Origin: Bacillota bacterium
GTDB taxonomy: Bacteria; Bacillota; Sulfobacillia; JAJZIM01
Length of the DNA: 64,000 nucleotides
Direction: 5' to 3'
Assembly: GCA_021810565.1 (NCBI GenBank)
Contig: JAJZIM010000012.1
Coordinates: 325-64,324, forward strand
The position numbers and the translations under genes were made by a program. The notes below the pieces were generated by a model. That model searched no databases. It saw nothing but the letters and a program-made list of their open reading frames with translations, and was not told the DNA's origin. Positions 8,327 through 50,283 of the stretch are shown in pieces. How positions within the stretch are numbered: the first letter of the stretch is position 1; every line of letters starts with the position of its first letter.

Positions 8327-8785
8327 TTGCCGTATCGGGAATTGACGCCCGAGACCAAGCTGGCGGCGGTGCGGGAGGTGTGGGGGCGGGGCGGCCGGGT
8401 GGCGGTGGTGGCCAGGAAATACGGCGTGTCCCGCGTTTCCCTGTACCGCTGGACCGCCCTGGCCGAGGGCACCATGCGGGAGGCCTTGGCCGAGGGACCC
8501 GGACCGCGACGGCAAGCCGACCTTTCCCGCCTCGAGGAGGAGAACGCGGCGTTGCGCCGCTACCTGGTGCGCCTAGCGGTTCAGGCCCGCGCCGCTGGGG
8601 TGCAGGTGGAGCCGCCCGGCGAGGAGTGGGAACCGCCTCCCGCGGCATGCCCGCGGTGCGGCAGCCGCAAAATGTGGCGGGACGGCTTCTATGCCGCCAA
8701 GGGAGGCCGTCGGCAACGCTACGAGTGCTCCAGCTGCCACCTGGTCGTCTACCAGGGAGGCTCGACCCGCGCCGACGGGTGGTGA
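8327..8785 (+). CDS. Transposase-derived DNA-binding protein: IS3 OrfA-like HTH, leucine-zipper stretch, and a C-terminal CxxC...CxxC zinc ribbon
   Basis: ETKLAAVREVWGRGGRVAVVARKYGVSRVSLYRWT resembles the HTH of IS3-family OrfA. CPRCGS...CSSCH forms a zinc ribbon. No catalytic transposase ORF follows. Confidence 0.5.
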   Translation: MPYRELTPETKLAAVREVWGRGGRVAVVARKYGVSRVSLYRWTALAEGTMREALAEGPGPRRQADLSRLEEENAALRRYLVRLAVQARAAGVQVEPPGEEWEPPPAACPRCGSRKMWRDGFYAAKGGRRQRYECSSCHLVVYQGGSTRADGW

Positions 8786-17658: not shown

Positions 17659-17735
17659 CGGGCTGTGGCGCAGATTGGTAGCGCGCTACCTTGGGGTGGT
17701 AGAGGTCGCGGGTTCAAGTCCCGCCAGTCCGACCA
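17659..17735 (+). tRNA. tRNA-Pro (anticodon GGG)
   Basis: 77-nt cloverleaf. Acceptor stem CGGGCTG/CAGTCCG, D stem GCGC/GCGC, anticodon stem CTACC/GGTAG with loop TTGGGGT, T stem GCGGG/CCCGC with TTCAAGT, and an encoded CCA. Confidence 0.85.
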
Positions 17736-23481: not shown

Positions 23482-24279
23482 GTGCGCCATTATCCCGGCT
23501 GCCAGGCGGCGGTGGTGTACCATGAGCGGCTCCTCGCGACGGAGGAGATCGCCGCCTGCCTGGGGCTGGCGATGGACCGGATGGCTCCGGAAGACTGCTG
23601 CGGCGGCGTGGAGGATCCCCCCAATTTCTTCAGCGGCATCGTGGCCCCCTTGCGCTTGGTGGACCTGGCGGGAGAGGACCAACTGGCCACCTCCTGCCTG
23701 TCCTGCTTGGCCAACCTGCGCGGCGCCTTCCGGCGCATGGACGAGAACCCTGAGACCAGGCGGCGGGCCGCCTTCTCCATGCAGGTGGTGGGCTACCGGG
23801 TGCCGGAGGGCACCGGGGCGCGGCACCTGCTGGATCTGCTGGCCCAGGGGGATCTGGCGGCGGCGGTGGCCGAGCGCGCCGTGGGGGATCTTTCCGGCCT
23901 GCGGGCGGCGGTCTACTACGGCTGCCGCAAGGGCGAGTTGGCGGAGCGGACTCCGGCGGCGGTGGAGGAAACCCTGCGCTCGTTGGGGGTGGAACTGGTG
24001 TCCTTCGCGGCGGCCGAGGAGTGTTGCGGCGCCCCCAAGGGTTACCGGGGCGGCCTGCCGGGAGGCAAAGGGCAAGCGGTGCTGCAGGGCGCGGCCCAGG
24101 CCGGAGCCGAGGTGGTGGTCACCGTGTGCGGCATGTGCCAGGCCAACCTAGAGAAGCAAAGGGGTGGTCCAGTTGTGATTCCCTTCCTGCAACTCCTGGC
24201 GGTGCCCCTGGGGATGGCGGAACGGGAAGTGTGGCTGAGGCGAAACGATACAGCAGAGGGAGGTCGAAAGGATGCCTGA
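23482..24279 (+). CDS. CCG-domain iron-sulfur protein (HdrB / GlpC / LutA-like) with two CCG cysteine-rich domains
   Basis: The N-terminus RHYPGCQ and two ...CCGG / ...CCGAP motifs fit PF02754-type CCG domains. GTG start with a weak gagcgagg SD. Confidence 0.6.
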   Translation: MRHYPGCQAAVVYHERLLATEEIAACLGLAMDRMAPEDCCGGVEDPPNFFSGIVAPLRLVDLAGEDQLATSCLSCLANLRGAFRRMDENPETRRRAAFSMQVVGYRVPEGTGARHLLDLLAQGDLAAAVAERAVGDLSGLRAAVYYGCRKGELAERTPAAVEETLRSLGVELVSFAAAEECCGAPKGYRGGLPGGKGQAVLQGAAQAGAEVVVTVCGMCQANLEKQRGGPVVIPFLQLLAVPLGMAEREVWLRRNDTAEGGRKDA

Positions 24280-26695
24280 GATCAAGCCCGACTACCGGCC
24301 GCAGGAGTCCACCCGGGACTACGATACCGTCCGGAGGACCACCTGCACCAACCAGTGCGAGTCAGGCTGTGGTATGAAGATCTATCTCAAGGAAGGGCGC
24401 ATCATCGACATCATGGGCGACGAGCGCCATCCCCTGAGCCGCGGCGGTCTTTGCAGCAAGGGGACCAGTCAGTTCCAGCGCTACTACAACCCCCTGCGGG
24501 TGCATTATCCCCATATCCGCAAGTCCCTGGATGATGAGTTCCGGCGGGTGAGCTGGGACGAGGCCATCGATTTCGTGGCCGAGCGGCTGACCCTTTTGAA
24601 GCAGCGCTACGGTCCCGAGGCCCTGGCCATCTTCCGCACCGGCCGCTCCTCTATGGGCAACAAGGTAGGCGGCGGGCGCTTCGGTAAGTTCTTCGGCACC
24701 CCCAACGTCTTCGGGCAGGGCCCCATCTGCTGCGAGAGCCCGGGGGCGGCCATGAACTACGTCTTCGGCGCCGAGGGCCTGGGCCGGCTTATGAACCCCT
24801 CCCCCGACTGGAAGCACTCCAAGTGCATTCTGATGGTGGGCACCGAGATGGCGGCTCAGGAGGTCATCACCTTCCGGGGGATCCTGGACGCCAAGGACGC
24901 CGGGGCCAAGATCATCGGCGTAGACCCCCGGTACAACTCCTCCATGTCCAAGGCCGACCTGTTCCTGATGGTGCGCAACAACACCGACACGGCGCTGTTT
25001 TTGGCCATGGGCAACGTCATCATCCAGGAGGGCCTGTACGACCGGGAGTTCGTGAACCAGTGGGTCTACGGCTTTGAGGAGTACCGGGAGGCCTGCGCCG
25101 AGTGGACGCTGGAGAAGGCGGAGCGGGTCACCATGGTGGACCGGGACCTGATCCTGAAGGCCGCCCGGCTCTTCGCCACCTCCAAGCCCGCCTCGGCCAC
25201 CGGGTGCCTGGGCACGGCCCAGCAGTACAACTCCAACAACATCAACCGCTCCATCGCCGCGCTCTTGGCCATCACCGGCAACGTGGGGATCAAGGGCGGC
25301 GGCTGGAACTGGCTGCACAACTGTCGGCCTCCCATGTCTTACGGCCAGGACACCAACGATGTTGCGGCCCCCAAGCGGCCCATCATCGCCGACAACCTGC
25401 TGCCCTGGGGCGACAACTCCGTGCCGACCATCATCAACGGCATGCTCCACGGCAAGCCCTACCCCATCCGGGGCCTGATCTGGAACGGCAACCACCTGCC
25501 CCAGTTCCCCAACGTGACCAAGACCGAGCAGGCCCTGCGCAAGAACCTGATCACCGTGCACCTGTCCCTCTATCCGAACCACACCTACCACTTCGCCCAC
25601 GCGGCCTTCCCCATCGCCATCGGCATGGAGACGGAGAGCATCTGCCATCACGGCAACAACCGCCTCATCCAGTGGCACAACAAGGTCATCGACTACCAGC
25701 ACGAGCACCGGCCGGATCTGTTTTTCTACAGCAAGCTGGCCAAGGCCATGGGCTTCGGGGACAAGTTCCCCTGGCTCACCAAGAACGACACCGACGTGGA
25801 CGAGCGGACCTTCACGGATTGGATGAACTCCCAGGACCACATGACCGCGGGCATAACCTCGGACCTGCTTGACCCGGAGAAGAACCCGCCGGGGGGCATC
25901 ATGTGGCCGGCGGAGAGCAAGAAGGAAGTCACCTTCCAGGATCCCGAGGCCACCATCCGCGGCAAGTGGATCATGTACCAGGAGGGGGACAACTACCCGG
26001 GCAGCAACCAGCGCTTCCCCACCCCCTCGGGCAAGATCGAGCTGGCATCCCCCTGGCTGGAGAAGTTCGGGTGGGACCGGGTGCCGCGCCACCGGGAGGC
26101 CAGCGAGACCTGGATCGCCAACCCGGAGCGGGCCAAGAAGTATCCCATCCAACTGAACACCTGCCGCATGACCTCCAGCTTCCACGAGGGCGGCCACTGG
26201 TGGCCCTGGGCCGACGAGCTGGTGCCCGACCGCTACATCCAGATCCATCCGGAGCTGGCCGGCCTTTTGGGCATCGAGGACGGCGACACGGTGATCCTGG
26301 AGAACGACCGGGGCGCCATCGACGGGCCCGCCTGGGTCACCGAGATGGTGCCGCCCTGGGGCAGCTGGGTCAACTTCGGCTTCGACCGCTACCAGCCCTT
26401 CCACCCCTACGAGACGGTCAACGTGGTCATCGACGACATCATCAAGGATCCGGTCTACGGCCAGATCCAATGGAAGTCCATGGCCGTGCGGATCCACCGC
26501 AAGGGCGACGACGGGGCCAAGGCCGCGGCCAAGGTGGACGCCTATCTGCGGGAGAACTACCCCAACCTGTTCAACGGCGAGGGTGTGCTCTTGGGCGAGT
26601 ACAAGAACCGGAACTGGGACTACGAGGAGCGCACACCCTGGGAGGATCCCTACGCCCAGGAGATCGCCACCGGCAACCTGAGCAGCAAGAAATAG
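24272..26695 (+). CDS. Molybdopterin (bis-MGD) oxidoreductase catalytic subunit, cytoplasmic (no Tat signal), with an N-terminal [4Fe-4S] motif
   Basis: 807 aa. The N-terminal CTNQCESGCGMK...C cluster motif and the length fit the DMSO-reductase superfamily. The start overlaps the upstream gene by 8 nt. Confidence 0.85.
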   Translation: MPEIKPDYRPQESTRDYDTVRRTTCTNQCESGCGMKIYLKEGRIIDIMGDERHPLSRGGLCSKGTSQFQRYYNPLRVHYPHIRKSLDDEFRRVSWDEAIDFVAERLTLLKQRYGPEALAIFRTGRSSMGNKVGGGRFGKFFGTPNVFGQGPICCESPGAAMNYVFGAEGLGRLMNPSPDWKHSKCILMVGTEMAAQEVITFRGILDAKDAGAKIIGVDPRYNSSMSKADLFLMVRNNTDTALFLAMGNVIIQEGLYDREFVNQWVYGFEEYREACAEWTLEKAERVTMVDRDLILKAARLFATSKPASATGCLGTAQQYNSNNINRSIAALLAITGNVGIKGGGWNWLHNCRPPMSYGQDTNDVAAPKRPIIADNLLPWGDNSVPTIINGMLHGKPYPIRGLIWNGNHLPQFPNVTKTEQALRKNLITVHLSLYPNHTYHFAHAAFPIAIGMETESICHHGNNRLIQWHNKVIDYQHEHRPDLFFYSKLAKAMGFGDKFPWLTKNDTDVDERTFTDWMNSQDHMTAGITSDLLDPEKNPPGGIMWPAESKKEVTFQDPEATIRGKWIMYQEGDNYPGSNQRFPTPSGKIELASPWLEKFGWDRVPRHREASETWIANPERAKKYPIQLNTCRMTSSFHEGGHWWPWADELVPDRYIQIHPELAGLLGIEDGDTVILENDRGAIDGPAWVTEMVPPWGSWVNFGFDRYQPFHPYETVNVVIDDIIKDPVYGQIQWKSMAVRIHRKGDDGAKAAAKVDAYLRENYPNLFNGEGVLLGEYKNRNWDYEERTPWEDPYAQEIATGNLSSKK

Positions 26696-26710
26696 AGGGG
26701 AGGCAATAGC

Positions 26711-27319
26711 ATGCAAGAAACCTTCGCCAAGAGCAACCCCTGGGAGGGGCGGGACTCGCGGGTGACCCTCAGGGGTCCCAAGACCCGGCTGGTCATGTCC
26801 GTGGACCTGGACCGGTGCATCGGCTGCTTTAGTTGCGAGATCTCCTGCAAGATGCAGAAGGACCTGCCGGTGGGTCCCCGCCTGATGCGGGTGATCCAGA
26901 TCGGACCGTACAAGGTCAAGGCCCACGGCAGCTTCCAGCTGCGCACCGTGTACATGCCCTTGAACTGCCGCCACTGCGAGCCCGCCCCTTGCATCGAGGT
27001 CTGCCCCACGGGGGCGATGCAGCGGCGGGAGAAGGATGGCATCGTCTTCGTGGCCCAGGAGCTGTGCATCGGGTGCAAGAGCTGCATCGCCGCCTGCCCC
27101 TTCGGGGCGCCGCAGCTGGACCCGCGCAACGGCAAGATCGTCAAGTGCGACTACTGCATGGACCGGGTGGACAAGGGTCTCTTGCCGGCCTGCGTCACCA
27201 AGTGCTCCATGGACGCCCTGCGCTTCGGGAACATCAACGAGCTGTCCACGGTGAGCCGGGAGAAGCATGTGCGCATGCTGACGGCCGACCTGTTCGACTG
27301 GAAGACGTCCCAGATCTGA
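26711..27319 (+). CDS. 4Fe-4S ferredoxin-type electron-transfer subunit (DmsB/HybA-like) of the molybdoenzyme
   Basis: Four Cys clusters (CIGCFSCEISC, CRHCEPAPC..C, CIGCKSCIAAC, CDYCMDR). Confidence 0.8.
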   Translation: MQETFAKSNPWEGRDSRVTLRGPKTRLVMSVDLDRCIGCFSCEISCKMQKDLPVGPRLMRVIQIGPYKVKAHGSFQLRTVYMPLNCRHCEPAPCIEVCPTGAMQRREKDGIVFVAQELCIGCKSCIAACPFGAPQLDPRNGKIVKCDYCMDRVDKGLLPACVTKCSMDALRFGNINELSTVSREKHVRMLTADLFDWKTSQI

Positions 27320-27350
27320 GGGCCGCCCTATATCAGCTGGAGGTGAGACG

Positions 27351-27596
27351 ATGGCTGGCGCACCTTTCGTAGGTACCGTGACGGCCGCCCCCTTTAGGGT
27401 GGAGTACATGAACGGAGACTTTGACCGGGCGGAGGAAGCACTCAAGAAGCAGGGGATCAAGATCACCGGTCGCAAGGTGATGAGCGTTCCCCCGTACCAT
27501 GCCACCATCTGGGTTCCGTTGGCCGACGAGGAGAAGGCCGCCAAGGTCTTGGCGGATGCGAAGGTAAAGACCCATCCCGTAAAGCCGGTGTACTAG
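27351..27596 (+). CDS. Hypothetical 81-aa protein downstream of the Fe-S subunit
   Basis: ORF only. No recognisable motif. Confidence 0.3.
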   Translation: MAGAPFVGTVTAAPFRVEYMNGDFDRAEEALKKQGIKITGRKVMSVPPYHATIWVPLADEEKAAKVLADAKVKTHPVKPVY

Positions 27597-27614
27597 CAGC
27601 GGGGAGGCAGGCAG

Positions 27615-28901
27615 ATGGGGCGGTCCAGCGTCGAGGAACTCGTCTCGCTGATCCTGGGGGAGGTGCCGGTGCTCCGGGAGACGGAGCAGGTTCCGGTGCC
27701 CCGGGCGGTGGGGCGCGCCCTGAGCGCGGATGTGACCGCCCCGGTGGACCTGCCGTCCTTCACCCGCTCGGCGGTGGACGGCTACGCCGTCAACAGCGAG
27801 GACCTGCGGGCGGCGTCGGGGGAGACCCCCGTGACCCTGCGGGTGGTGGAGAAGGTCACCGCCGGGCACGTGCCTCAGGCGGCCCTGGGCGGCGGCGAGG
27901 CGGCCCTGACCACCACCGGCGCCATGCTGCCGGAGGGCGCGGACGCCGTGATCCTGGTGGAGGAGGCCTCCCGGACGGAGGAGGACCGGGTGGTGCTCAC
28001 CCGGTCGGCCCAGCCGGGGCAACATGTGTCTCCCGTGGGCGAGGACTTTCAAAAGGGGCAACAGCTCTTGTCCCGCGGCCATCTGCTGCGGCTGGTGGAC
28101 GTGGCGGCCCTGGCGGCCCTGGGGATCACCCGGGTGCCGGTGGTGCGCCGCCCCCGGGTGGCCATCTATTCCACGGGTGACGAGTTGGTGTCGCCAGGTG
28201 ATCGCCTGGGCCCGGCCCAGGTCTACGACTCCAACGCCTACCTGCTGGAGGCGGCGGTGTTGGAGGCGGGAGGGGATCCCCACCGCCTGGGGGCCCTGCC
28301 TGACGAGGCTGAGGACGTGGAGGCATATATCTATCGAGCCTGCTCCGACGGCGCCTTCGACCTTTTGGTCACCACGGGCGGCACGGGAGCGAGCCTCTTG
28401 GTGTTGGAGGGGCAGGACGTGGAGAATATCCACGATCTGATCCCCGCGGTGGTGGCCAAGTTGGGCCGGCTGAAGAGCCACGGCCTGCGCATGATCCCGG
28501 GCAAGCCCACGGCCTTCGGCGAGGTGGCCGGCAAGCCGGTGTTCTCCCTGGCCGGATGGCCCTATTCGGCCATCATGACCTTCCATCTATTCGTCCGACC
28601 GGCCATCCGGAAGATGGCTGGCCTGCCGCCCCTGAGTCACGAGCGAACGATCACCGCCCGCCTGACCCAGGCGGTGGAGACGGAGGAGGGTACCAGGAAA
28701 TATTTCCAGGTGCGCCTGGAGGAGCGGGACGGCCAGTGGTGGGCTCAGCCGCTTTTGCCGCCGCGGCCTCCCTCTGCGGCCCGGACCATGCGCCAGATGC
28801 TGGAGGGCAACGGCTATTTCCACCTGGACGGCACCCAGGTGGCGCGACTCGGCGAGGGGGACACGGTGCAGGTTACCGTGGACGATCCGGCATGGACCTG
28901 A
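27615..28901 (+). CDS. moeA: Molybdopterin molybdenumtransferase MoeA (copy 1)
   Basis: SFTRSAVDGYAV and the GGTG signature fit MoeA. Length 428 aa. Confidence 0.85.
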   Translation: MGRSSVEELVSLILGEVPVLRETEQVPVPRAVGRALSADVTAPVDLPSFTRSAVDGYAVNSEDLRAASGETPVTLRVVEKVTAGHVPQAALGGGEAALTTTGAMLPEGADAVILVEEASRTEEDRVVLTRSAQPGQHVSPVGEDFQKGQQLLSRGHLLRLVDVAALAALGITRVPVVRRPRVAIYSTGDELVSPGDRLGPAQVYDSNAYLLEAAVLEAGGDPHRLGALPDEAEDVEAYIYRACSDGAFDLLVTTGGTGASLLVLEGQDVENIHDLIPAVVAKLGRLKSHGLRMIPGKPTAFGEVAGKPVFSLAGWPYSAIMTFHLFVRPAIRKMAGLPPLSHERTITARLTQAVETEEGTRKYFQVRLEERDGQWWAQPLLPPRPPSAARTMRQMLEGNGYFHLDGTQVARLGEGDTVQVTVDDPAWT

Positions 28902-29785
28902 TCCCCTCCCTGCGGGTGGCCGTTTGGTCGGCTTGCGACCTGTCCTGCGAATATTGCCACCGGGAGGGGGACGTGCATCCCGGACGACATTTGGCAGACC
29001 GGGAACTTTTGATGCTGCTGCGGACGGCCCTGCCCCTGGGGCTGCGCAAAATCAAGCTCACCGGCGGTGAGCCACTGTTGCGTCCGGGCCTGCCTGCTCT
29101 GGTGCGGGAGCTGGCAACCCTGGGAGCTGACCTCTCCCTCACCACCAACGGCCTGGAACTGGCCACCCAGGCGGGCGACCTGGCCGCGGCCGGGTTGCGG
29201 CGCGTTAATATCAGCCTGGACACCCTGCGGCCCGAGCGTTTCCGGGAACTTACCGGGGAGGACCGCCTGGCCGGGGTGCTGGAGGGCGTCCGGGCGGCCG
29301 CCAAGGCCGGACTGGCCCTGGAGCTGGACGCGGTGGTCCTGCGGGGCGTCAACGAGGAGGAGACGGTAGATCTTATCGCTTTCGCCGGGGGCCTCGGGGC
29401 GCGGATCCAGTTCATCGAGCTGTCCCAGGTGGGCATCTCCTCCACCTATTACCGGCGTCGCCACCGGGATCTGGAGTCCCTGGAGCGCTGGCTGCGGGAG
29501 CGGGGCGAGGCGCTGGAGGACGCCACGCGCCGCTTCGACCGGCCGCGCTTTCGGGTGAACGGGGTGACGGTCAGCCTGTGCCGCTTCGTCCGCTACGCGG
29601 AACCCGGAGCGCGCCGCCGCGGTTTGCGTTTGGCGGCCGACGGCCGAGTGTACGGTTTCCGCTACGGAGAGCCGCCCCGCGCCGATCTGGGGGCGGCGTT
29701 GCGTGGCGGGGCGGGCCAGGCCCGGCTGACGGAGCTTTGGGCCCGGTGCGTCCGGATTGGACAGGAGGTATCGGCGGCTAGATGA
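28892..29785 (+). CDS. MoaA-family radical-SAM protein (CDLSCEYC) that appears to LACK the three C-terminal auxiliary-cluster cysteines of GTP 3',8-cyclase
   Basis: The radical-SAM CX3CX2C motif, KIKLTGGEPLL, NISLDTL and RIQFIELS align with MoaA. In the C-terminal region where MoaA has C-x2-C-x13-C, this product has VSLCRFVRYAEPGARRRGLRLAADGRVYGFRYGE with no CxxC and no third Cys. Confidence 0.65.
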   Translation: MDLIPSLRVAVWSACDLSCEYCHREGDVHPGRHLADRELLMLLRTALPLGLRKIKLTGGEPLLRPGLPALVRELATLGADLSLTTNGLELATQAGDLAAAGLRRVNISLDTLRPERFRELTGEDRLAGVLEGVRAAAKAGLALELDAVVLRGVNEEETVDLIAFAGGLGARIQFIELSQVGISSTYYRRRHRDLESLERWLRERGEALEDATRRFDRPRFRVNGVTVSLCRFVRYAEPGARRRGLRLAADGRVYGFRYGEPPRADLGAALRGGAGQARLTELWARCVRIGQEVSAAR

Positions 29786-30273
29786 AGCTGAGGCTTTCCG
29801 GCCGGGAGGCCGGGTTGGACTTTCAAAACGTGCATCTGGTGCCGGGACGCGGCAAGTGCAGCGGGTTGCATCCCCATTTCCACAGCCTCTCCGTGACGGT
29901 GGAGGGGGAGCTGTCGGAGCGGGGGATGCTGGTGCATCTGTATCGCCTGAAGGATGCGGTGCGGGCCTTGTGCGAGGAGTTGGACCATCGGGTGCTCCTG
30001 GCGGACTACCCCCCCGCGGTGATGCAGATCCGGGAGGAGGACGCGGGCTATCAGGTGGAAGTCAACGACAAGCGGTATTTTCTGCCCCGCCAGGACGTGG
30101 TGCGCTTACCCATCGGTTCCCTGAACGTGGAGGATCTGTGCCGCTACCTCACCGCCCGGCTGGCCGATGCCCTGGACCCCATCCTGGATCGCGACCGTCT
30201 GACCTCCCTTACGGTGGAGCTGGACGAGGGCGGCGGACAGGCGGCCTCCCTGACCGTGGCCTTGCGGGGATGA
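29782..30273 (+). CDS. 6-pyruvoyl-tetrahydropterin synthase / QueD-family (T-fold) protein, at the position where moaC would be expected
   Basis: FQNVHLVPGRGKCSGLHPHFHSLSVTVEGE and GMLVHLYRLKDAV...LDHRVLL align with the QueD/PTPS Zn-site motifs (H-x-L-P ... C-x-x-LHGH-x-F ... GE, and the LDH box). There is no similarity to MoaC. Confidence 0.65.
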   Translation: MKLRLSGREAGLDFQNVHLVPGRGKCSGLHPHFHSLSVTVEGELSERGMLVHLYRLKDAVRALCEELDHRVLLADYPPAVMQIREEDAGYQVEVNDKRYFLPRQDVVRLPIGSLNVEDLCRYLTARLADALDPILDRDRLTSLTVELDEGGGQAASLTVALRG

Positions 30274-30869
30274 CCGGCGCCGTGCTGGCGGGGGGAAGCA
30301 GCACCCGCATGGGTCAGGAGAAGGGGCTGGTCCAATTGGCCGGGCGCCCGCTGGCCGACATCGTGGCCACCCACCTGGAGTGCTCCCCCGGGGTGGAGCG
30401 GGTGCTTTTGGTCACCAACCACCCGGAGCGGTTCGCGGATCTGGGATGGGAGATGATCGCCGACCGCCACCCGGGGCGGGGTCCCCTGGCCGGGATCCAC
30501 GCCGCCCTCCAGTTGGCCGAGGACTGGGTGTTCGTAGCCGGGTGCGACATGCCCTTCCTGCCGGCCGAACTCCCCGCCGCCCTGCATGCCCTGCGGGACG
30601 GCGTCGACCTGGTCCTGCCGCGGGTCGGCGGCCACGCCGCCACCGTGGCGGCCCTGTACGGACCGGGGTGCCTCCCGGCGCTGGAGGAGGCCCTGCGGGG
30701 GGAGGGCCCGCGCTTGGCCCAGGTGTTGCCGGCCCTGCGGGTGCGGGAGGTGGGCGAGGATCAACTCGTCCGCTGGGGCGATCCAGCCTTGCGCTTCCTG
30801 AGCGTCAACTCGCCCCGGGACTTGGCGCGGGCCGCGGTCCTGGCGGAAGGGAGGAAACTCCTGTGGTAA
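30270..30869 (+). CDS. mobA: Molybdenum cofactor guanylyltransferase MobA
   Basis: MTGAVLAGGSSTRMG N-terminus. The start overlaps the upstream stop (ATGA). Confidence 0.75.
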   Translation: MTGAVLAGGSSTRMGQEKGLVQLAGRPLADIVATHLECSPGVERVLLVTNHPERFADLGWEMIADRHPGRGPLAGIHAALQLAEDWVFVAGCDMPFLPAELPAALHALRDGVDLVLPRVGGHAATVAALYGPGCLPALEEALRGEGPRLAQVLPALRVREVGEDQLVRWGDPALRFLSVNSPRDLARAAVLAEGRKLLW

Positions 30870-32071
30870 GTTTGGAGGAGGCCTTGGAGTCACTGCTGGG
30901 CCGGACGGGAGCCTTGGACGCCGAGGAGGTGGCCCTGGCCGAGACCCACGGCCGAGTGCCGGCCGGGGACATATGCGCCCCGGTGGACCTCCCCGCCTTC
31001 GACCGTTCGGCCATGGACGGCTACGCCGTGCGCTCCTCCGATACCGCCGGCGCCCGGGAGGAGGCGCAGGTTCGTCTCGTCCTGCGCGGGGAACTGCCGG
31101 CGGGGGCGAGCCTTCAGCCAGGGGAGGCGGTGCGGGTGGCCACCGGCGGACCGCTGCCGCGGGGGGCGGACGCGGTGCTGGTGGTGGAGGCGACCCGGGA
31201 GGACGCCGCGGCGGTGTGGGCCCGCGCCGCGGTCAGGCCCAGGGACAACGTCATCCGGCGGGGCAGCGACGTGTCGCGAGGCACGGTGGTCCTGGAGCGG
31301 GGAACCCAGCTCGACGCCGCCGCCCTGGGGCTCTTGGCGGGTCTGGGGGTCACCCGGATCCGAGTGTTTCGCCGCCCGCGGGTGCACCTTTTGGTCACCG
31401 GGGACGAGGTGGTGGCGCCCCACGAGGAACCGGGTCCGGGACAGATCCGGGACCAGAACAGCCTGGGGATAGGGTGGGCGTGTCGGGAGGCTGGCGCCGA
31501 GGTGGTCGGCTGTGCCCGGGTGGGGGACGACCCCGATCGCCTGCGGGAGGCCCTGACGGCGGGGCGCGGCGCCGAGGTGATCCTGGTATCGGGGGGGGTC
31601 TCCGTGGGACGCCGCGACTTTTTGCGCCGGGTGGTGGCCGAGATGGGGGGCGAGGAGCTATTCTGGCGGGTGCACATGCGTCCCGGGAAGTCCGCCCTGG
31701 GCGCCCTGGTGGATGGTCGGCCGTTGGTGGGGCTCGCGGGCAGCCCCGGATCGGCCATGCTTACCTTCCAACTGCTGGTGCGCCCGTTGCTGCGGCATCT
31801 GGGCGGCCATCGCTACCTGGCACGACCCCGGGTGCCGGTGCGGCTGGCCGAGGGTTTTCCCAAGGCCTCGCCGCGGCCGCGCTACCTGCGGGCGACGGTG
31901 GGGGAGGACGCCGCGGGCCCCATGGCCCATCTGATTTCTGGGCAGGGTTCCGATTCGACCTTCTCCTGGCTGCGGGCCAACGCCCTGGTGGTGGTGCCGG
32001 GGGGTTCCGGGCCCTTGGCGGCCGGGGAGAGCTTGGAGGCCATCATGCTGGACCGTCCCGAGGAGCATTGA
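30863..32071 (+). CDS. moeA: Molybdopterin molybdenumtransferase MoeA (copy 2)
   Basis: GTG start with a gaagggagga RBS, overlapping the mobA stop. FDRSAMDGYAV and the full MoeA architecture are present. Confidence 0.8.
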   Translation: MVSLEEALESLLGRTGALDAEEVALAETHGRVPAGDICAPVDLPAFDRSAMDGYAVRSSDTAGAREEAQVRLVLRGELPAGASLQPGEAVRVATGGPLPRGADAVLVVEATREDAAAVWARAAVRPRDNVIRRGSDVSRGTVVLERGTQLDAAALGLLAGLGVTRIRVFRRPRVHLLVTGDEVVAPHEEPGPGQIRDQNSLGIGWACREAGAEVVGCARVGDDPDRLREALTAGRGAEVILVSGGVSVGRRDFLRRVVAEMGGEELFWRVHMRPGKSALGALVDGRPLVGLAGSPGSAMLTFQLLVRPLLRHLGGHRYLARPRVPVRLAEGFPKASPRPRYLRATVGEDAAGPMAHLISGQGSDSTFSWLRANALVVVPGGSGPLAAGESLEAIMLDRPEEH

Positions 32072-32084
32072 GGAGGCGAGGCGA

Positions 32085-32603
32085 ATGTATCCGGAGAGGG
32101 TAGCGGAGTACAAGCGGGCCATCAATGTGGATGCGGCCAAATGCAACGCCTGCGGCGAGTGCATCCCCGCCTGCCAGCAGGCCATAGCCTATGAGCATCG
32201 CAAGGCGGATCCCTTCCCCCGCATCTGGATCCAGCGGGTGGGCCAGAAGCTGCAGCCCCTTTTGTGCCACAATTGCGAGCAGGCTCCCTGCGTCAGCGCC
32301 TGCATGACCGGCTGCCGGCACCGGGACGGTGACTTCGTCACCACCGATTACGACCGCTGCGTGGGCTGCAGCATGTGCGTGATGTGCTGCCCCTTCGGGG
32401 TGATCCAACTGGTGGAGGAGGAGAAGCTGGCCATGAAATGCGACGGCTGCCTGGAGCACGAGACGGCGCCCTGCGTGGCCGCCTGCAAGCCCGGCGCCCT
32501 GCGCCACGTGGGCTATCTGGAATCGGCCCAGATCACGCGCTGGGACAAGGCCGGAGAGTTCGCCTTCAGCCAAGTGGTCTCCGCCGGAAAGGGGGAGCGT
32601 TAG
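32085..32603 (+). CDS. Multi-cluster 4Fe-4S ferredoxin
   Basis: Four Cys motifs (CNACGECIPAC, CHNCEQAPCVSAC, CVGCSMCVMCC, CDGCLEHETAPCVAAC). Confidence 0.75.
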   Translation: MYPERVAEYKRAINVDAAKCNACGECIPACQQAIAYEHRKADPFPRIWIQRVGQKLQPLLCHNCEQAPCVSACMTGCRHRDGDFVTTDYDRCVGCSMCVMCCPFGVIQLVEEEKLAMKCDGCLEHETAPCVAACKPGALRHVGYLESAQITRWDKAGEFAFSQVVSAGKGER

Positions 32604-33869
32604 ATGCGCTACGTGATGATCGGCAACTCCTACGCGGGCCTGGCGGCCGCCGAGGCCGTGCGGCGCCGGGACCCCAAAGGGGAGATCATGGTGCTCTCCG
32701 ACGAGCGTCACGAGGCCTACGGGCGCCCGCTGATCTCCTATTACCTGGGAGGCGAGACGCCTCCGGAGCGGATGAACTACCGCCCGGCCGCCTTCTATCG
32801 GAACCACCGGATCCAAGTCCGCACGGATTCCCGGGTGGTCAAGGTGTTGCCGGACAGCCGTCATCTGCAACTGGCGGACGGCACCGACCTCGCCTATGAC
32901 CGGCTGATGATCTCCACCGGGGGCAAGCCCTTCGTGCCGCCCATGAAGGGCACCGATGCGCGGGGCGTGTTCACCTTCACTACCTGGCAGGATGCCGACG
33001 ACATCAAGGAATGGCTGCCCCGGGTGCGGGACGTGATCGTCATCGGGGGCGGGCTCATCGGCCTGTCGGCGGCGGATGCCCTGCGCCACCGCGGCGGGGT
33101 GGGCGTGACGGTGGTGGAGATGTTGCCCCGAGTCCTGGGCCTGGCCCTGGACGAGGACGGCTCCAACCTGCTGCAAAACCGCATGGTGGAGTTGGGTACT
33201 CAGGTGGTCACCGAGGACTCGGTGACGGAGATCGTGCCCGATGGGGACGGGGTAGTGCAGGGGGTGGTCCTGAAGAGCGGCCGGGAGTTGCCCTGCCAGA
33301 TGGTGGTGGTGGCCATCGGCGTGCGGCCCAACACCGGCTTTCTTCAGGAGTCCGGCATCCAGATCAACCGGGGCATCGTGGTCGACGAGCGCATGGCTAC
33401 CAACCTGCCCGGCGTCTACGCCGCGGGGGACGTGGCGGAGGGATACGACGTGATCAACGCCGATCACCGCATCATCGCCATCCTGCCGGTGGCCTACGAG
33501 ATGGGGCTGATCGCCGGCGCCAACATGGCCGGAGATTCTCAGCTATATGCCGGGGGCATCGCCATGAACTCCATGCCCAAATTCGAGATGTCGGTGATGA
33601 CCATGGGACTCACCCTGGATCAGCCGGATTTGGAGGCGGTGCGCCGACGCCGCGGCGACCAGTATCAGAAGTTCCTATTTCGCGGCGATCAACTGGTCGG
33701 GGCCATCCTGGTGGGCGACACCACCGCCGGTGGTGTGCTGACCGCCCTGATCAAGAAGCAGGAAACCCTGACCGCCGCCCTGAAGGAGCGCATCCTCTAC
33801 GGGAACTACCGGTCTTTGGTGGCGGAGCGCAAGCTGACCTGGGCCAAGGCGGCCAAGGCCGCCTCTTAG
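32604..33869 (+). CDS. FAD/NAD(P)-binding oxidoreductase of the ferredoxin/rubredoxin-reductase type
   Basis: Two Rossmann GxGxxG regions (VMIGNSYAG, VIGGGLIGLSAA) and EAYGRPLISYY (compare Y-x-RPPLSK of ferredoxin reductases). No redox-active Cys pair. The start overlaps the ferredoxin stop. Confidence 0.7.
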   Translation: MRYVMIGNSYAGLAAAEAVRRRDPKGEIMVLSDERHEAYGRPLISYYLGGETPPERMNYRPAAFYRNHRIQVRTDSRVVKVLPDSRHLQLADGTDLAYDRLMISTGGKPFVPPMKGTDARGVFTFTTWQDADDIKEWLPRVRDVIVIGGGLIGLSAADALRHRGGVGVTVVEMLPRVLGLALDEDGSNLLQNRMVELGTQVVTEDSVTEIVPDGDGVVQGVVLKSGRELPCQMVVVAIGVRPNTGFLQESGIQINRGIVVDERMATNLPGVYAAGDVAEGYDVINADHRIIAILPVAYEMGLIAGANMAGDSQLYAGGIAMNSMPKFEMSVMTMGLTLDQPDLEAVRRRRGDQYQKFLFRGDQLVGAILVGDTTAGGVLTALIKKQETLTAALKERILYGNYRSLVAERKLTWAKAAKAAS

Positions 33870-36979: not shown

Positions 36980-37040
36980 CCATATGTGCGCAGGGGCGGC
37001 CACGCCCCGCCGACATCGTAAAAGGGGGTTGATAATTGAG

Positions 37041-37409
37041 ATGAACGCTCTTGGCCGGCACGTTCTGGCCGAGGTATTCGGTTGCCAGCGTGCCATCCTC
37101 AACGATGTGGACAAGGTCGAGGGCATCATGGTGAATGCCGCCTTGAGCGCGGGAGCGGAGATACGCGAAGTGGCTTTCCACAAATTCAGCCCCCAGGGCG
37201 TCAGCGGCATGGTCATCATCTCGGAGTCCCACCTGGCCGTGCACACTTGGCCGGAGTTGGGCTACGCGGCGGTGGACGTGTTCACCTGCGGCGATCGGGT
37301 GGATCCCTGGGAGGCTTGCAACTATATCGTGGAGCATTTCGGGGCCAAGAACGTGACGGCCACGGAGACCAAGCGGGGCATCTTCGAAGCAGCCCAGGCG
37401 GCCGGCTGA
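37041..37409 (+). CDS. speH: S-adenosylmethionine decarboxylase proenzyme (small class-1a AdoMetDC)
   Basis: GRHVLAEVFGC...AEIREVAFHKFSPQGVSGMVIISESHLAVHTWPELGYAAVDVFTCG, which includes the self-cleavage ES site. The first in-frame ATG after the aagggggtt RBS was chosen. Confidence 0.8.
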   Translation: MNALGRHVLAEVFGCQRAILNDVDKVEGIMVNAALSAGAEIREVAFHKFSPQGVSGMVIISESHLAVHTWPELGYAAVDVFTCGDRVDPWEACNYIVEHFGAKNVTATETKRGIFEAAQAAG

Positions 37410-37476
37410 CTGGCCGGCGTGACCGTCGGTTTCTTCCCTGCCGCCCTTCGGCAGGGAAATTTTCTATGGGGCAACC

Positions 37477-37959
37477 TTGGAAGTTGGGGGGAAGGCGATT
37501 TTGGAGCGAACACTGGTCCTGATCAAGCCGGATGCGGTGGAGCGCGGCCTAATAGGGCAGATCGTGTCCCGCCTGGAGCGCAAGGGGCTGCGCCTGGCGG
37601 GGCTGAAGCTATTCCGTCTGGACCGGGGCACCGCCGAGGAACACTACCGTCAGCATCGGGAGCGGCCCTTCTTCAGGGAGCTCATCGACTTCATCACTCG
37701 GGGGCCGCTGGTGGCCATGGTCTGGGAGGGGCGCGGAGCGGTGGAGGTGGTGCGCAGCTTGATGGGAGCCACCGACCCGCTGCAGGCCGCCCCCGGCACC
37801 GTGCGGGGCGACTTGGCTCTGGATCTGGCCTGCAACCTGGTCCACGGCTCCGACTCGGTCCAGGCGGCCGCCCGGGAGATCGAACTGTTCTTTCGACCGG
37901 AGGAGTTGGTCGCCTACCGGCGTGCCCAGGACGGGTGGCTGGGCTTTCCGGAAGCATAG
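37477..37959 (+). CDS. ndk: Nucleoside diphosphate kinase (start may be the TTG at 37501)
   Basis: [20 protein letters not shown] and the active-site His region are present. Confidence 0.85.
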
Positions 37960-37974
37960 AAGGGGGGAAGGACG

Positions 37975-38742
37975 GTGGGAACGGCCATCATCGGCGGCAC
38001 GGGGGTGTATGATCCGGGAGCCCTGGAGGCGGCCGGCGAGGAGCGGGTCGACACCCCCTGGGGCGAGGTGCACCTGCAGCGGGGTCGGCGCGCCGGCGCG
38101 GACCTGTTCTTCCTGGCGCGCCACGGCGCCGACCACAGCGTGCCGCCCCATCGGGTGAACTACCGGGCTAATATATGGGCCTTGCGGGAGCTGGGGGTGG
38201 AGCGGATCCTGGCCACCGCGGCGGTGGGCTCGTTGAATCGAGAGATGGAGCCCGGCGCCTTCGTGGCCGTGGACCAGTTCATCGACCAGACCAGGGGCAG
38301 ACCTGGCACCTTCTTCGACGACCGGGTGGTGCACACCGATTTAAGCGAGCCGTATTGCACCCAAATGCGCCAGGCGCTAGCCGGGGCGGCGCAGGAGATG
38401 GGGATCCATCTCCTTTCCACCGGCTGCTACATCTGCACCGAGGGTCCACGTTTCGAGACCCCGGCGGAGATCCGGGCCTACCGCCGCTGGGGCGCCGACC
38501 TGGTGGGGATGACTGGCGTACCGGAGGTGGTGCTGGCCAGGGAGGCGGGTATCTGCTACGCCACAGTGGCCCAGGTGACCAATTATGCCGCCGGCGTGTC
38601 CCCGCGTCCCCTGTCCCACCAGGAGGTGGTGGAGTTCATGGCCCACTCCGCCTTGACCATGCGGCAGCTGTTCCTGGCGGCCGTGGACCGCTTGGCGGGC
38701 CAGCCCCGCGATTGCTGCTGCGCCGCTTTAGGGGGGTTTTGA
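37975..38742 (+). CDS. mtnP: S-methyl-5'-thioadenosine phosphorylase (PNP/MTAP family-2)
   Basis: GTG start with an aggggggaagg RBS. IIGGTGVY at the N-terminus, plus ICYATVAQVTNYAAG. It sits in a polyamine/SAM-salvage neighbourhood. Confidence 0.75.
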   Translation: MGTAIIGGTGVYDPGALEAAGEERVDTPWGEVHLQRGRRAGADLFFLARHGADHSVPPHRVNYRANIWALRELGVERILATAAVGSLNREMEPGAFVAVDQFIDQTRGRPGTFFDDRVVHTDLSEPYCTQMRQALAGAAQEMGIHLLSTGCYICTEGPRFETPAEIRAYRRWGADLVGMTGVPEVVLAREAGICYATVAQVTNYAAGVSPRPLSHQEVVEFMAHSALTMRQLFLAAVDRLAGQPRDCCCAALGGF

Positions 38743-38743
38743 G

Positions 38744-39985
38744 ATGGGCGGTTCGGTGATCCGCGACCCGGCCCTGGCCGCGGAGGGCGAGCGCAAGATC
38801 GCCTGGGCGCGGGAGCACATGCCGATTCTGGAGCAGGTGCGCGCTGAACTGGTCGCCGGCTCCGCGTTGTCCGGAAGGCGGGTGGGGATATGCCTGCACC
38901 TGGAGGCGAAGACGGCGGTGCTGGCCATCACCCTGGCCGAGGCCGGCGCCCAGGTGTATGCCTGCGGCTCCAACCCCTTGTCCACCCAGGACGACGTGGT
39001 CGCCGCCCTGGACCGCGCCGGGGTGCGGGTGTATGCCCTGCACGGAGCCACGCCGGAGGAGTACGACGCCTTCCTGGGTATGGTGGCCGAACAGGATCCG
39101 GAACTGGTCATCGACGACGGTGCCGACCTCATCGCCCTGTTGGCCCGGCGGGGGCAGGGCGACCGGGTCCAGGGAGGGTGCGAGGAGACCACCACCGGGA
39201 TCGTGCGCCTGAAGGCCATGGAGGCCCGGGGTGAGTTGCCCTTCCCGGTGGTGGCCGTAAACAACGCGCGCTGCAAGTACCTTTTCGACAACCGCTACGG
39301 CACCGGGCAGTCGGTCTGGGACGGTATCATGCGCTCCACCAACCTGCTGGTGGCGGGCAAGACCGTGGTGGTGGTAGGCTACGGCTGGTGCGGCAAGGGC
39401 GTGGCCCTGCGGGCACGGGGGCTGGGTGCCCAGGTGGTGGTCTGCGAGGTGGACCCCATCGCGGCGGCAGAGGCGGCGTTGGACGGGCAGCGGGTGCTGC
39501 CCATGGCCCAGGCGGCACCCCTGGGAGACGTTTTCGTCACGGTCACCGGCTGCACCGAGGTCATCCGGGGCGAGCATTTCGAGCGGATGAAGGACGGGGC
39601 GCTCTTGGCCAACGCCGGCCATTTCGACGTGGAGATCTCAAAGCCGGATCTGGCCCGCCTGAGCACGCAGGTGCGCCGGGTGCGCGAGCATGTGGAGGAG
39701 TACCGCCTGGCGGACGGGCGGCGGGTGCACCTGCTGGCGGAGGGCCGGCTGGTGAACCTGGCCGCCGGGGACGGCCACCCGGTGGAGATCATGGACATGA
39801 GCTTCGCCCTGCAGGCCATGAGCCTGCGCCACGTGGCGGTGAGCGGCCGGCTTCCTCGGCAGGTGCTGAGCGTGCCGGCGGAGGTGGACCGGCGGGTGGC
39901 CGAGCTGCGGCTCAATTCCTGGGGCATGGGCATCGACCAATTGACCCCGCGCCAGGTGGAGTACCTGGCCGCATGGGAAGCGTGA
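38744..39985 (+). CDS. ahcY: Adenosylhomocysteinase
   Basis: Full-length match including the NAD-binding motif [13 protein letters not shown] and the C-terminal region. Confidence 0.9.
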
Positions 39986-40106
39986 GGGCGGCAGGAAAGC
40001 CGAGTCGCCGAGGCGAAATTACCTACCAGAAACGGGTAGCGCAACGGTAGGCGGGATCGCAGGAGCGGCCGCCGATCCTTGCGGAACTCCCAAACGAGGT
40101 GGTGGG

Positions 40107-41744
40107 GTGCCCCCCGAAAAGGTCCCGGCCCCGGGTGGGGCGCGGCTGCAGCGCAAGCTGCGGGAGGTTGAGGCGCGCTGTGCGGAGCTCAGGGCGTGCT
40201 TGGCGTCTTTGGACGAGGCCCTCCAGGCCGGCGAGGACCGCGCCGCCGTGATGCGGCGGGTGGCGGAGAGCGCCTGCCGTCTCGGTCGGGCGGACGCCTC
40301 CGCCGTGTTCCTGGCCGAGGAGCGCAGCCAGGGATTGCGTCTGGTGGCCACGGTGGGGGAGAGTCGGATGCATCTGGCCGGTCCCTGGGCCTCCCTGGTG
40401 GCCATGGCCTACGACGAGGGGGTCCCGGTGCACCTGGACCGCCGGGCCGGTTGGTCCTACCTGGCCATCCCGGGCGCTCGCGCCGGGCAGGCCAGGGCCA
40501 TGCTGGTGGTGGGCCGCCGCGGCCGCGCCTTCGGGCCGGAGGAGGTGGCCTACCTCTCGGTGCTGGCCGAGCAAGCGGTGGTGGCGGGGAGCAACCTGCG
40601 CCTGTATGAGCACCTGCACCAAGCCGCCTACACGGACCGGATGACCGGTCTGCCCAACTACCGCTATTTCGAGACCTACCTGGAGCAGATCCTCGGCCAG
40701 GTGGGCACGGGAGCCTTCCGGGAACTCGCCCTGCTGATGGTGGATCTGGACCATTTCAAGTACGTCAACGATCGGTTCGGGCACCTAAAGGGAGACGAGG
40801 TGCTGCGCCGGGTGGGCGTCGCCCTGCGGGAGGCGGTGCGTCCGGGCGACCTGGTGGCCCGCTACGGCGGGGAGGAGTTCACCGTGGTGCTCCCCGGGAC
40901 CAACGTCCGGGCGGCCGAGGAGGTGGCCGAGCGCGTCCGCCAGCGCATCGAGGACCTGCGCTGGGAGCGGGTGCTGGGGGAGCCCTGGCACCTGTCCGCC
41001 TCGGTGGGAGTGGCGAGCCTGTCGGCCGGCCGGCAGCTTTTCACCTCCCTTTTGGCCGCCGCCGACGGGGCCATGTATCGGGCCAAGGCCCTGGGCCGCA
41101 ACCGGGTGGTGCGGGTGGAGGAGGCGGGTGGCGCGGCGGAGCTGCGGGAGGATACGGTGATCGCCTCCTTGCGCTACCGCAACGGGGAGACGCTCCACGC
41201 CCTGGCCGCCCTCCTGGACGAGCGCGACCATTACACCCTGGACCACAGCATGCGAATGTCCCTCCTGGCCCGACGTCTGGCCGCGGAGTTGGGGCTTAGC
41301 GCGCCCGAGCTGCAGGCCGTGGAGCTGGGCTGCCTCCTGCATGACGTGGGCAAGGTCCGCGTGAGTACCGGGGTCCTGCACAAACCGGGTGTGCTGGATC
41401 CCGCCGAGTGGGACGAGGTGCGCCGCCATCCCGAGGTCGGCAGGGATCTCCTGCAGCGGGTGGGCGAGTGGGGGCTGGTTTTGGACATCGTGGCCTACCA
41501 CCACGAGCGTTGGGACGGTCGCGGCTATCCCCTGGGGCTGCGGGGCCAGGCGATCCCACGCCTGGCCCGGCTGGTGGCCATAGTGGACGCCTTCGCGGCC
41601 ATGCGCGCTCCCCGCCCCTATCGCTTGGCCCTGGACCTGCGGGAGGCTTTGCAGCAGTTGGAGCAGGGGCGCGGCGCCAGTTTCGACCCGCAGATCGTGG
41701 ATCGTCTGATGGACATGTTGCGACGGGAGGGGGAACCGCCGTGA
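40107..41744 (+). CDS. GAF - GGDEF - HD-GYP multidomain c-di-GMP signalling protein
   Basis: The GGDEF region contains RYGGEEF. The HD-GYP region contains [11 protein letters not shown] and HDVGK. Confidence 0.8.
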
Positions 41745-46488: not shown

Positions 46489-46688
46489 GCTTTCCGCCCG
46501 GCCGATCCCGCCGACGTGCGGCGGCCCTCCCACCGGGCGCTTCCCTCCTTCGATGTCGTCGGGCGCCCGGGGGCGCCGGGAGGGTCGGGTGAAGAGCCAC
46601 GGGAACCTGGTGGGAACTCACCACCTCCCTTTCGCATGGGCTGGGAGCCGATCAACTCGGCAAAAACACTTTACCGGGCTTGAACGGC

Positions 46689-50275: not shown

Positions 50276-50283
50276 CAAGGCGG

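Follow-up and report, generated by a model that had tools for sequence, protein, structure and literature searches.

A MoaA-family radical-SAM protein without auxiliary-cluster cysteines and a PTPS/QueD-family partner encoded together in a molybdoenzyme operon

The DNA analyzed here, to which we refer as the window, is a stretch of 64,000 nucleotides (nt) from contig JAJZIM010000012.1 of the Bacillota assembly GCA_021810565.1. Eleven genes run head to tail on its + strand (23482-33869) and form an operon around an oxidoreductase of the bis(molybdopterin guanine dinucleotide) (bis-MGD) type. An earlier note, made from the sequence alone, had drawn attention to a protein in this operon that resembles MoaA, the GTP 3',8-cyclase of molybdenum cofactor (Moco) synthesis, and to the gene after it, called X, which occupies the moaC position. 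The MoaA-like protein, a member of the radical S-adenosylmethionine (SAM) enzymes, is called rSAM below. The families concerned, MoaA-family radical-SAM proteins and T-fold proteins of the 6-pyruvoyltetrahydropterin synthase (PTPS)/QueD family, are known, and their combination is new; the literature that we searched contains neither a MoaA homologue without auxiliary-cluster ligands nor a moaC position that is occupied by a PTPS-family gene. The conservation of the two genes, the selection acting on them and their context indicate that the pair likely has a catalytic role linked to the cofactor. The pair and its immediate neighbors are as follows.

27615-28901, + strand: moeA1, MoeA-type molybdopterin molybdotransferase (Pfam MoeA_N and MoCF_biosynth), kept in all operon copies.
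28892-29785, + strand: rSAM, 297-amino-acid (aa) MoaA-family radical-SAM protein without auxiliary-cluster ligands (Pfam Radical_SAM, 95 bits).
29782-30273, + strand: X, 163-aa T-fold protein of the PTPS/QueD family (Pfam PTPS, E=7e-14).
30270-30869, + strand: MobA-type molybdenum cofactor guanylyltransferase (103-154 bits against NCBIfam MobA models, under cut-off; Pfam NTP_transf_3), present in all operon copies.
30863-32071, + strand: moeA2, a second MoeA (NCBIfam and Pfam MoeA, all three domains).

The start of each gene in this series overlaps the stop of the one before it, as had been claimed: by 10 nt from moeA1 to rSAM, by 4 nt (ATGA) from rSAM to X, by 4 nt from X to mobA and by 7 nt from mobA to moeA2. 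In its setting the pair resembles MoaA/MoaC, being a two-gene unit that has moeA on one side and mobA on the other and belongs to a molybdoenzyme operon, and the order moeA-rSAM-X-mobA parallels the common moaA-moaC(-mobA) arrangements. MoeA1 aligns over its full length with the NCBIfam MoeA-type models at 267-359 bits, which is under their cut-offs. The moeA2 gene is found only in the species of the window; it is absent from the related loci L007, L010, L011, L016 and L107, and in the other four lineages that carry the operon mobA is followed directly by a ferredoxin gene. Two short assemblies of this species (L005 and L006) have moeA2 called shorter (311 aa) and with a gap after mobA.

The coordinates given for the rSAM gene in the earlier note and the elements listed for its product (CX3CX2C, GGEPLL, NISLDTL and the C-terminal string VSLCRFVRYAEPGARRRGLRLAADGRVYGFRYGE) are all present. 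The best three NCBIfam models for rSAM are the MoaA equivalogs (181-200 bits, with cut-offs of 231-325), and all other models lie more than 110 bits behind; against the archaeal MoaA model, the match has an E-value of 3e-59. Five of the six rSAM proteins that make up the clade were scanned and scored 175-204 bits with the MoaA models (cut-offs 231, 284 and 325), as compared with 294-373 bits for the canonical protein P0008. The Pfam model of the MoaA C-terminal domain, Mob_synth_C, left a sub-threshold trace (15.9 bits vs 37.4). An AlphaFold model of rSAM built from 49 sequences had a predicted local distance difference test score (pLDDT) of 90.3 and a predicted template modeling (TM) score (pTM) of 0.89. 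Its top four matches in the PDB are all Staphylococcus aureus MoaA (TM 0.80-0.83; best match, TM 0.82), with SkfB/SuiB, BlsE and the viperins well behind. The model thus predicts the MoaA fold, a partial TIM barrel followed by a C-terminal twitch-like domain, and the Pfam scan of rSAM found no SPASM or peptide-recognition domain. Three other identities were considered and rejected: QueE, which has no model within the best 25 NCBIfam matches; viperin, which matches the N-terminal half only (52.9 bits, cut-off 180); and the TIGR04317 maturase (49.5 bits, far under its cut-off). By sequence and predicted fold, then, rSAM is a member of the MoaA family that fails several of the defining tests of a GTP 3',8-cyclase. 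The residues on which this statement depends are the following.

28934-28957, + strand: CX3CX2C radical-SAM cluster motif (C15, C19, C22), invariant in the clade and in all aligned MoaA homologues.
29321-29323, + strand: Glu144, which the alignment places at S. aureus MoaA Lys163.
29579-29665, + strand: degenerate auxiliary-cluster region, residues 230-258, in which the alignments show C230 kept and G, R and F as the equivalents of C261, C264 and C278; RRRGLRLAADGRVYGF.

The clade was compared with 44 canonical MoaA sequences, and the auxiliary region was read from alignments A1, A4, A6 and A7. The cysteines of the loop were counted by regular expression and from MAFFT alignments, the hmmalign count being unreliable there owing to indels. 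All three auxiliary cysteines are present in 44 of the 44 canonical sequences. Their absence from rSAM, claimed in the earlier note, was confirmed for the entire clade, in which the positions of C261, C264 and C278 (S. aureus numbering) are occupied by G or P, R, and F, respectively, in six of six members. C230 is the sole other cysteine conserved in the C-terminal half of the clade proteins. The auxiliary loop itself (residues 231-240) is modeled with low confidence (mean pLDDT 61).

The substitution at Lys163 is similarly distinctive. Lys occupies this column in 251 of 271 aligned MoaA-family sequences, and Glu is found only in the six clade members and in two further proteins, P0136 and P0138. 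We take Lys163 of S. aureus MoaA to be a phosphate contact. The clade also differs from canonical MoaA in having Trp for Thr21 and, mostly, Asp for Asn25, and in the missing N-terminal D..GR segment. Bacterial and eukaryotic MoaA carry a C-terminal Gly-Gly tail; rSAM ends in GQEVSAAR and has no such tail, a difference that is weakly diagnostic, as archaeal-type canonical sequences in A1 are also without it.

Much of the MoaA pocket is nonetheless kept. Of 77 columns conserved in canonical MoaA, 47 are retained in rSAM, including the TGGEP, TTNG and SLD motifs and the equivalents of Arg17, Lys69, Arg71 and Arg268. In MoaA, Arg17, Arg266 and Arg268 are essential and strictly conserved in the GTP site, and R17 and R268 contact the guanine (PMC9026282); these two correspond to R8 and R246 of rSAM, both of which are invariant. 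The R266A mutant of MoaA is inactive (PMC12625886). The R266 column reads G, Q or R depending on the alignment, with Gly at the aligned position of rSAM beside an RRR run, where the loop alignment is ambiguous and the confidence of the model is low.

Among 1.84 billion representatives scanned in full with HMMER, one belongs to the clade; below it, the score falls from 474 to 245 bits. The next-best sequences are two archaeal-type MoaA-like proteins: P0136, from a 1.3-kb contig in ENA, and P0138 (L023:4989-5924), from the archaeal metagenome-assembled genome (MAG) GCA_015520145.1. Like the clade, both proteins have Glu for Lys163, the upstream Cys230, Phe at the position of the third cysteine and a short N-terminus; unlike the clade, they have a cysteine triad, which is shifted (C-x8-C-x4-C, where the canonical spacing is C-x2-C-x13-C) and may still hold a second cluster. 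Both pass one of the MoaA cut-offs (249-252 vs 231 bits) and would therefore be annotated as ordinary MoaA. P0138 adjoins a 370-aa chaperone of the NarJ/TorD family and two proteins without a Pfam match, with no PTPS gene nearby; the context of P0136 is unreadable from its 1.3-kb contig. Complete loss of the cysteine ligands was seen only in the clade that has X as a partner. A likely order of events is that a canonical MoaA first acquired the shifted triad and the Lys-to-Glu change and later lost the triad completely, the last stage alone being accompanied by the T-fold partner. The correlation between triad loss and X is only suggestive, because it represents a single evolutionary event.

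The partner is not MoaC, as the earlier note had recognized: no MoaC model matches X in Pfam or NCBIfam at E<=1, and the fold search returned T-fold proteins only, whereas MoaC is ferredoxin-like. The assignment of X to the QueD/PTPS-type T-fold proteins is agreed upon by Pfam (PTPS, PF01242, COG0720; 52.3 bits vs a gathering score of 22.4), by the predicted fold (pLDDT 89.1; best PDB match Plasmodium PTPS, TM 0.83; further matches all with PTPS, QueD, FolX/FolB or GTP cyclohydrolase folds) and by the following motifs.

29833-29883, + strand: zinc and catalytic motif H18 ... C26-S-G-L-H30-P-H32-F-H34; H18, C26, H30 and H32 are invariant in the clade and its archaeal relatives, and H34 is clade-specific.
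29983-29988, + strand: Asp68-His69 dyad, invariant in alignments A2 and A3.
30130-30132, + strand: Glu117, candidate pterin/purine-anchoring glutamate, invariant in A2 and A3.

With three histidines for zinc, a catalytic cysteine, the Asp-His dyad and the glutamate, whose roles are assigned by homology (that of the anchoring glutamate from T-fold enzymes in general), X looks catalytically competent, as does its confidently predicted T-fold. The CxxxHGH motif class is that of PTPS-I/QueD, the 6-carboxytetrahydropterin (CPH4) synthase (PMC5041015; PMC5445326). X keeps the QueD-type CxxxH-x-H spacing in C-S-G-L-H-P-H, with Pro in place of Gly in all clade members, and X and its clade score 38-43 bits with the NCBIfam QueD equivalog (cut-off 89.25). 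The possibility raised in the earlier note that the two genes are a known queD/queE pair applies only in part, in that X has the CxxxH-x-H motif but misses the QueD cut-off and rSAM is not QueE by its hidden Markov model (HMM) matches. An assignment of X to PTPS-III, the FolB replacement, was rejected, there being no Glu at position -3 of the HxH motif.

The nearest relatives of X, with 35-38% identity, are archaeal PTPS genes that stand alone in housekeeping contexts and encode 156 aa. Compared with these, the clade has gained His34 and His52 (H-P-H-F-H vs H-G-H-I-Y at 29869-29883; His52 vs Asp at 29935-29937), and the H-P-H-F-H run and His52 may form a changed or second metal or acid-base site. 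Mean column identity of X across lineages is 84%.

The remaining genes of the operon encode the enzyme that the pair would serve and its redox partners.

23482-24279, + strand: CCG-domain (HdrB/GlpC-like cysteine-rich) protein, operon gene 1 (Pfam CCG, E=6.6e-13), which heads the operon in all related loci.
24272-26695, + strand: 807-aa molybdopterin (bis-MGD, DMSO-reductase superfamily) oxidoreductase catalytic subunit (Pfam Molybdop_Fe4S4, Molybdopterin and Molydop_binding).
26711-27319, + strand: DmsB-like four-cluster ferredoxin subunit (NCBIfam DMSO_dmsB, 169 bits, cut-off 214).
27351-27596, + strand: conserved protein of 81-84 aa (81 aa in the window), whose gene lies between those of the ferredoxin subunit and MoeA1 wherever the operon occurs.
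32085-32603, + strand: second ferredoxin (PadI/HydN-like; NCBIfam matches), kept in all operon copies.
32604-33869, + strand: FAD/NAD(P)H pyridine-nucleotide-disulfide oxidoreductase (PadH-like), the last operon gene in the window (NCBIfam PhenlGlyoxDHPadH, 285.6 bits, cut-off 475; Pfam Pyr_redox_2 and Rubredoxin_C).

The stop of the CCG gene and the start of the oxidoreductase gene overlap by 8 nt. The oxidoreductase belongs to no curated family: every NCBIfam match is far under its cut-off, the best being Fdh-alpha (285 vs 666). Its top PDB sequence matches are FdhF of the hydrogen-dependent carbon dioxide reductase (HDCR), FdhA and acetylene hydratase. The enzyme is 83-92% identical in amino acid sequence between lineages that range from 50 to 68% in GC content, while its operon partners are only 50-70% identical, which implies that the catalytic gene either is very strongly constrained or has recently spread horizontally. 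By eye, its PICCESPG segment resembles a metal-ligand cysteine region, and no His of the formate dehydrogenase (FDH) type follows it. For the 81-84-aa protein, no family was matched beyond a sub-threshold hit to Se_S_carrier, a putative Se/S carrier family (E=0.023); MoaD was considered and rejected, as the C-terminus is without GG.

No moaB, moaC, moaD or moaE, genes of the synthesis of cyclic pyranopterin monophosphate (cPMP) and molybdopterin (MPT), was found with the operon. The earlier note's statement that moaC, moaD/E and moaB are lacking in the 64 kb held up in a six-frame phmmer search with E. coli MoaB, MoaC, MoaD and MoaE, which gave no match in the window or in the translations of any related operon locus. 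No coding small open reading frame (ORF) of the window ends in GG. Pfam scans of the ORFs up to 57.1 kb detected no MoaC, MoaE, ThiS/MoaD, QueC/E/F or FolE; the ORFs at 57-64 kb were covered by the six-frame search and the GG-end check only. Likewise, Pfam annotation of ORFs in the window and in related loci revealed no queC, queF or folE. When the same queries were applied as a control to 80 unrelated moeA loci from many phyla, MoaC was detected in 26, MoaE in 25 and MoaA in 20 of the 80, and a profile of X gave one weak match. Since the operon contains no moaD/E, further Moco genes must be present elsewhere in the host. The closest canonical MoaA proteins (P0005-8 and P0022) were rejected as candidate host copies: they come from unrelated organisms, P0022 being archaeal, and the MoeA there is about 39% identical to that of the window. 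Rfam searches at gathering thresholds in the window and five related loci detected a single tRNA and no Moco, preQ1 or tetrahydrofolate (THF) riboswitch, none before the operon.

Word-indexed searches of 5.8 billion proteins returned only a handful of clusters for rSAM or X. The window, a high-GC stretch (56-75% over 2-kb windows), is 99.8% identical to contigs of the Thermaerobacter sp. MAG GCA_027420695.1 and of several ENA/Logan assemblies. In all, the operon was found in five distinct lineages of thermophilic bacteria of the Thermaerobacter type (GC 50-68%), two of Thermaerobacter sp. and three groups of 'Firmicutes bacterium' MAGs, and five of five carry the same 10-11 genes with rSAM and X adjacent. 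Both genes are open, full-length and adjacent in every locus that holds the whole gene pair, and in most relatives an MFS_MOT1 molybdate transporter gene follows the operon. For rSAM the ratio of nonsynonymous to synonymous substitution (dN/dS) is about 0.14-0.23, and for X it is 0.07-0.17; these values are close to those of moeA1 and mobA of the same operon, and synonymous sites are saturated between lineages. As judged from these sequence comparisons, rSAM and X are under purifying selection and are functional, co-inherited genes. A scan of genome-representative contigs with a chimeric MoeA2+X query returned generic MoeA loci only (30-42% identity), the species of the window not being among the representatives. 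In JGI metagenomes, the X alignment matched nothing, and an 'ELNT' segment from the variant rSAM family matched just two radical-SAM loci, both distant and unrelated.

What, then, does the pair do? That it acts catalytically on a guanine or pterin nucleotide for the cofactor of the neighboring enzyme is suggested by several observations taken together: the context of molybdenum uptake, insertion and guanylylation, the three-domain bis-MGD subunit, the MoaA pocket residues kept in rSAM, the PTPS/QueD catalytic set kept in X and the strict coupling of the genes. The reading that we favor, with a probability of roughly 40%, is that rSAM and X are a dedicated pair acting on a guanine- or pterin-type nucleotide and supplying a pterin precursor to the bis-MGD oxidoreductase of the operon, most likely as a counterpart of MoaA/MoaC. 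The structural half of the earlier note's interpretation (a MoaA relative without the ligands, a T-fold protein in the place of MoaC, tight coupling) stands, and its functional half, a variant route to cPMP or a different product, is the hypothesis weighed here.

We infer the substrate, the order of the steps, the product and the way in which the radical might be quenched without an auxiliary cluster as follows. The CX3CX2C cluster of rSAM would bind SAM, the largely MoaA-like pocket of the protein would hold a GTP-like substrate, and a substrate radical would be generated without an auxiliary cluster. The zinc-dependent X might then carry out the pterin-forming rearrangement and the phosphate elimination that are normally the task of MoaC. 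The product, cPMP or a close derivative, would pass to an MPT synthase encoded by the host and then to the MoeA and MobA of the operon itself. In MoaA, the auxiliary cluster binds N1/N2 of GTP and has been proposed as the electron donor that reduces the aminyl radical (PMC5352715; PMC9026282). In rSAM, another donor, possibly the conserved Cys230 or a Tyr, would have to quench the radical in place of this cluster. Viperin and the prokaryotic viperin-like enzymes provide a precedent, as they have a MoaA-like radical-SAM fold and act on a nucleoside triphosphate; because they work without an auxiliary cluster, such chemistry is feasible on a MoaA-like scaffold. rSAM differs from them in its predicted structure (TM about 0.62-0.69 to viperins vs 0.82 to MoaA) and in having no antiviral context.

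Several of our own observations weigh against a MoaA/MoaC-like role. rSAM fails every MoaA HMM cut-off, Glu for Lys163 reverses a charge, and Gly stands at the aligned position of R266. Both clusters of MoaA, thus including the auxiliary one, are described as essential for activity (PMC5352715; PMC9026282). The QueD signature of X also points elsewhere, as the substrate of QueD is dihydroneopterin triphosphate, which is no product of MoaA (PMC5041015; PMC5445326). Finally, the operon lacks MPT synthase genes, and the host probably has a canonical moaA and moaC as well, which would make a second route to cPMP redundant.

To our knowledge, the steps catalyzed by MoaA and MoaC are among the most conserved in cofactor synthesis in all domains of life. 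That this chemistry might be possible in another way would bear on the mechanism of radical-SAM enzymes, on how Moco synthesis tolerates oxygen in thermophiles that live aerobically, and on engineering. The alternative outcome would be a new GTP-derived pterin or deazapurine product tied to an uncharacterized molybdoenzyme family. In either case, the annotations 'radical SAM protein' and '6-carboxytetrahydropterin synthase' in these MAGs conceal a linked system, and the pair is small, soluble-looking and defined in sequence, hence directly testable. A more specific proposal can be put forward tentatively: an auxiliary-cluster-free descendant of MoaA and an X that replaces MoaC would provide a new class of bis-MGD oxidoreductases, linked to NAD(P)H, with a pyranopterin precursor or a new pterin cofactor. 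If it is true, then the first step of Moco synthesis, until now regarded as universal, has a second and mechanistically distinct solution; we consider this proposal somewhat unlikely.

One could also imagine that the host MoaA and MoaC supply cPMP and that rSAM and X make a different GTP-derived molecule of the pterin type, such as a modified pyranopterin or a second organic cofactor for this oxidoreductase. Both proteins have the appearance of neofunctionalized enzymes, rSAM through the lost ligands and the changes at Lys163, T21 and N25 and X through its clade-specific His34 and His52; both fall under all curated family cut-offs, and the oxidoreductase, outside every curated family itself, is unusually conserved. 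The operon without moaD/E implies, moreover, a host Moco pathway elsewhere. However, the oxidoreductase has the ordinary three bis-MGD Pfam domains and is accompanied by an ordinary MoeA and MobA, with no pointer to an unusual cofactor, the operon contains no further tailoring or carrier genes, and we found no precedent in the literature searched. On the whole we regard a different pterin product as possible but unlikely.

A second alternative takes the motif class of X at face value. X would make 6-carboxytetrahydropterin from dihydroneopterin triphosphate, and rSAM would convert it to a 7-deazaguanine product resembling 7-carboxy-7-deazaguanine (CDG). In favor of the analogy with QueD/QueE, here too a CxxxH-x-H zinc enzyme of the T-fold type is paired with a radical-SAM enzyme that, like QueE, has the SAM cluster only; GTP-derived pterins are the starting point of both pathways, and the nearest relatives of X are stand-alone archaeal PTPS/QueD-like genes. 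Loss of the auxiliary cluster together with the Lys163-to-Glu change could suit a substrate that is bound through a carboxylate and Mg2+ and is not a triphosphate. The radical-SAM partner here is MoaA-derived, however, with the MoaA models more than 110 bits ahead of the rest and QueE outside the best 25, and the genes around it insert the molybdenum cofactor, with no queC, queF or folE in the Pfam-annotated ORFs. X differs from QueD in being a 163-aa long form with HPH for HGH, and at 38-43 bits it is well short of the equivalog cut-off of 89. Nor would a role in tRNA modification or deazapurine synthesis explain why, in five lineages, the pair is strictly coupled to moeA and mobA. We think that a QueD/QueE analogue is improbable.

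An equally improbable alternative is that rSAM is a maturase acting on the apo-enzyme or on the enzyme-bound cofactor, with X as a pterin-binding helper or chaperone. Curated MoaA-like radical-SAM maturases of tungsten and molybdenum enzymes do exist, for example, TIGR04317, which gives the weak 49.5-bit match mentioned above, and the variant P0138 lies beside a chaperone of the NarJ/TorD type, which functions in redox-enzyme maturation, in its archaeal MAG. Against this, all catalytic residues of a PTPS/QueD enzyme with a small-molecule substrate are preserved in X and strongly constrained, and rSAM keeps the guanine-contacting arginines of MoaA and has no domain for peptide recognition, SPASM included. 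That the two genes are what is left of a moaA and a queD-like gene in decay, without a catalytic role, as the loss of residues regarded as essential in MoaA might suggest, is very improbable in view of the open, full-length and adjacent genes across five lineages with saturated synonymous divergence and dN/dS well below 1, the invariant SAM-cluster and zinc-site motifs and the confident predicted folds.

Downstream of the operon (36984-43027) lie genes for an AdoMet decarboxylase, a nucleoside diphosphate kinase, a protein of the purine nucleoside phosphorylase (PNP)/5'-methylthioadenosine (MTA)-phosphorylase family and an AdoHcy hydrolase and, after a GGDEF-HD gene, an amidohydrolase of the MTA/S-adenosylhomocysteine (SAH)-deaminase type. 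The presence of this run of SAM by-product and nucleoside genes beside the operon is probably coincidental, because the neighborhood is absent in other lineages.

The rest of the window contains the SpoIVA gene (4792-6351), whose product is the endospore coat morphogenesis ATPase and which identifies the organism as a spore-forming member of the Bacillota, and a tRNA gene (17659-17732), the sole Rfam match in the window. An apparent frameshift divides a DDE transposase of the insertion sequence (IS) type (84-1272) into two overlapping ORFs, and a separate HTH_Tnp_1 transposase fragment lies at 8327-8785. A secreted protein of 1422 aa (50209-54477) combines a pro-kumamolisin activation domain, four tandem Big_1/Invasin_D3 repeats and, at the C-terminus, a Peptidase_A4 domain; Peptidase_A4 is also encoded by a gene of its own on the minus strand at 45604-46533. 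Three paralogous surface-protein modules of about 300-450 aa with Big_1 repeats (54512-57121, 58012-59361 and 62147-63505), which by eye share long near-identical stretches, flank a region of lower GC content (57-62 kb, GC 0.56-0.60) that encodes an NHL-repeat-like protein (60716-62143).

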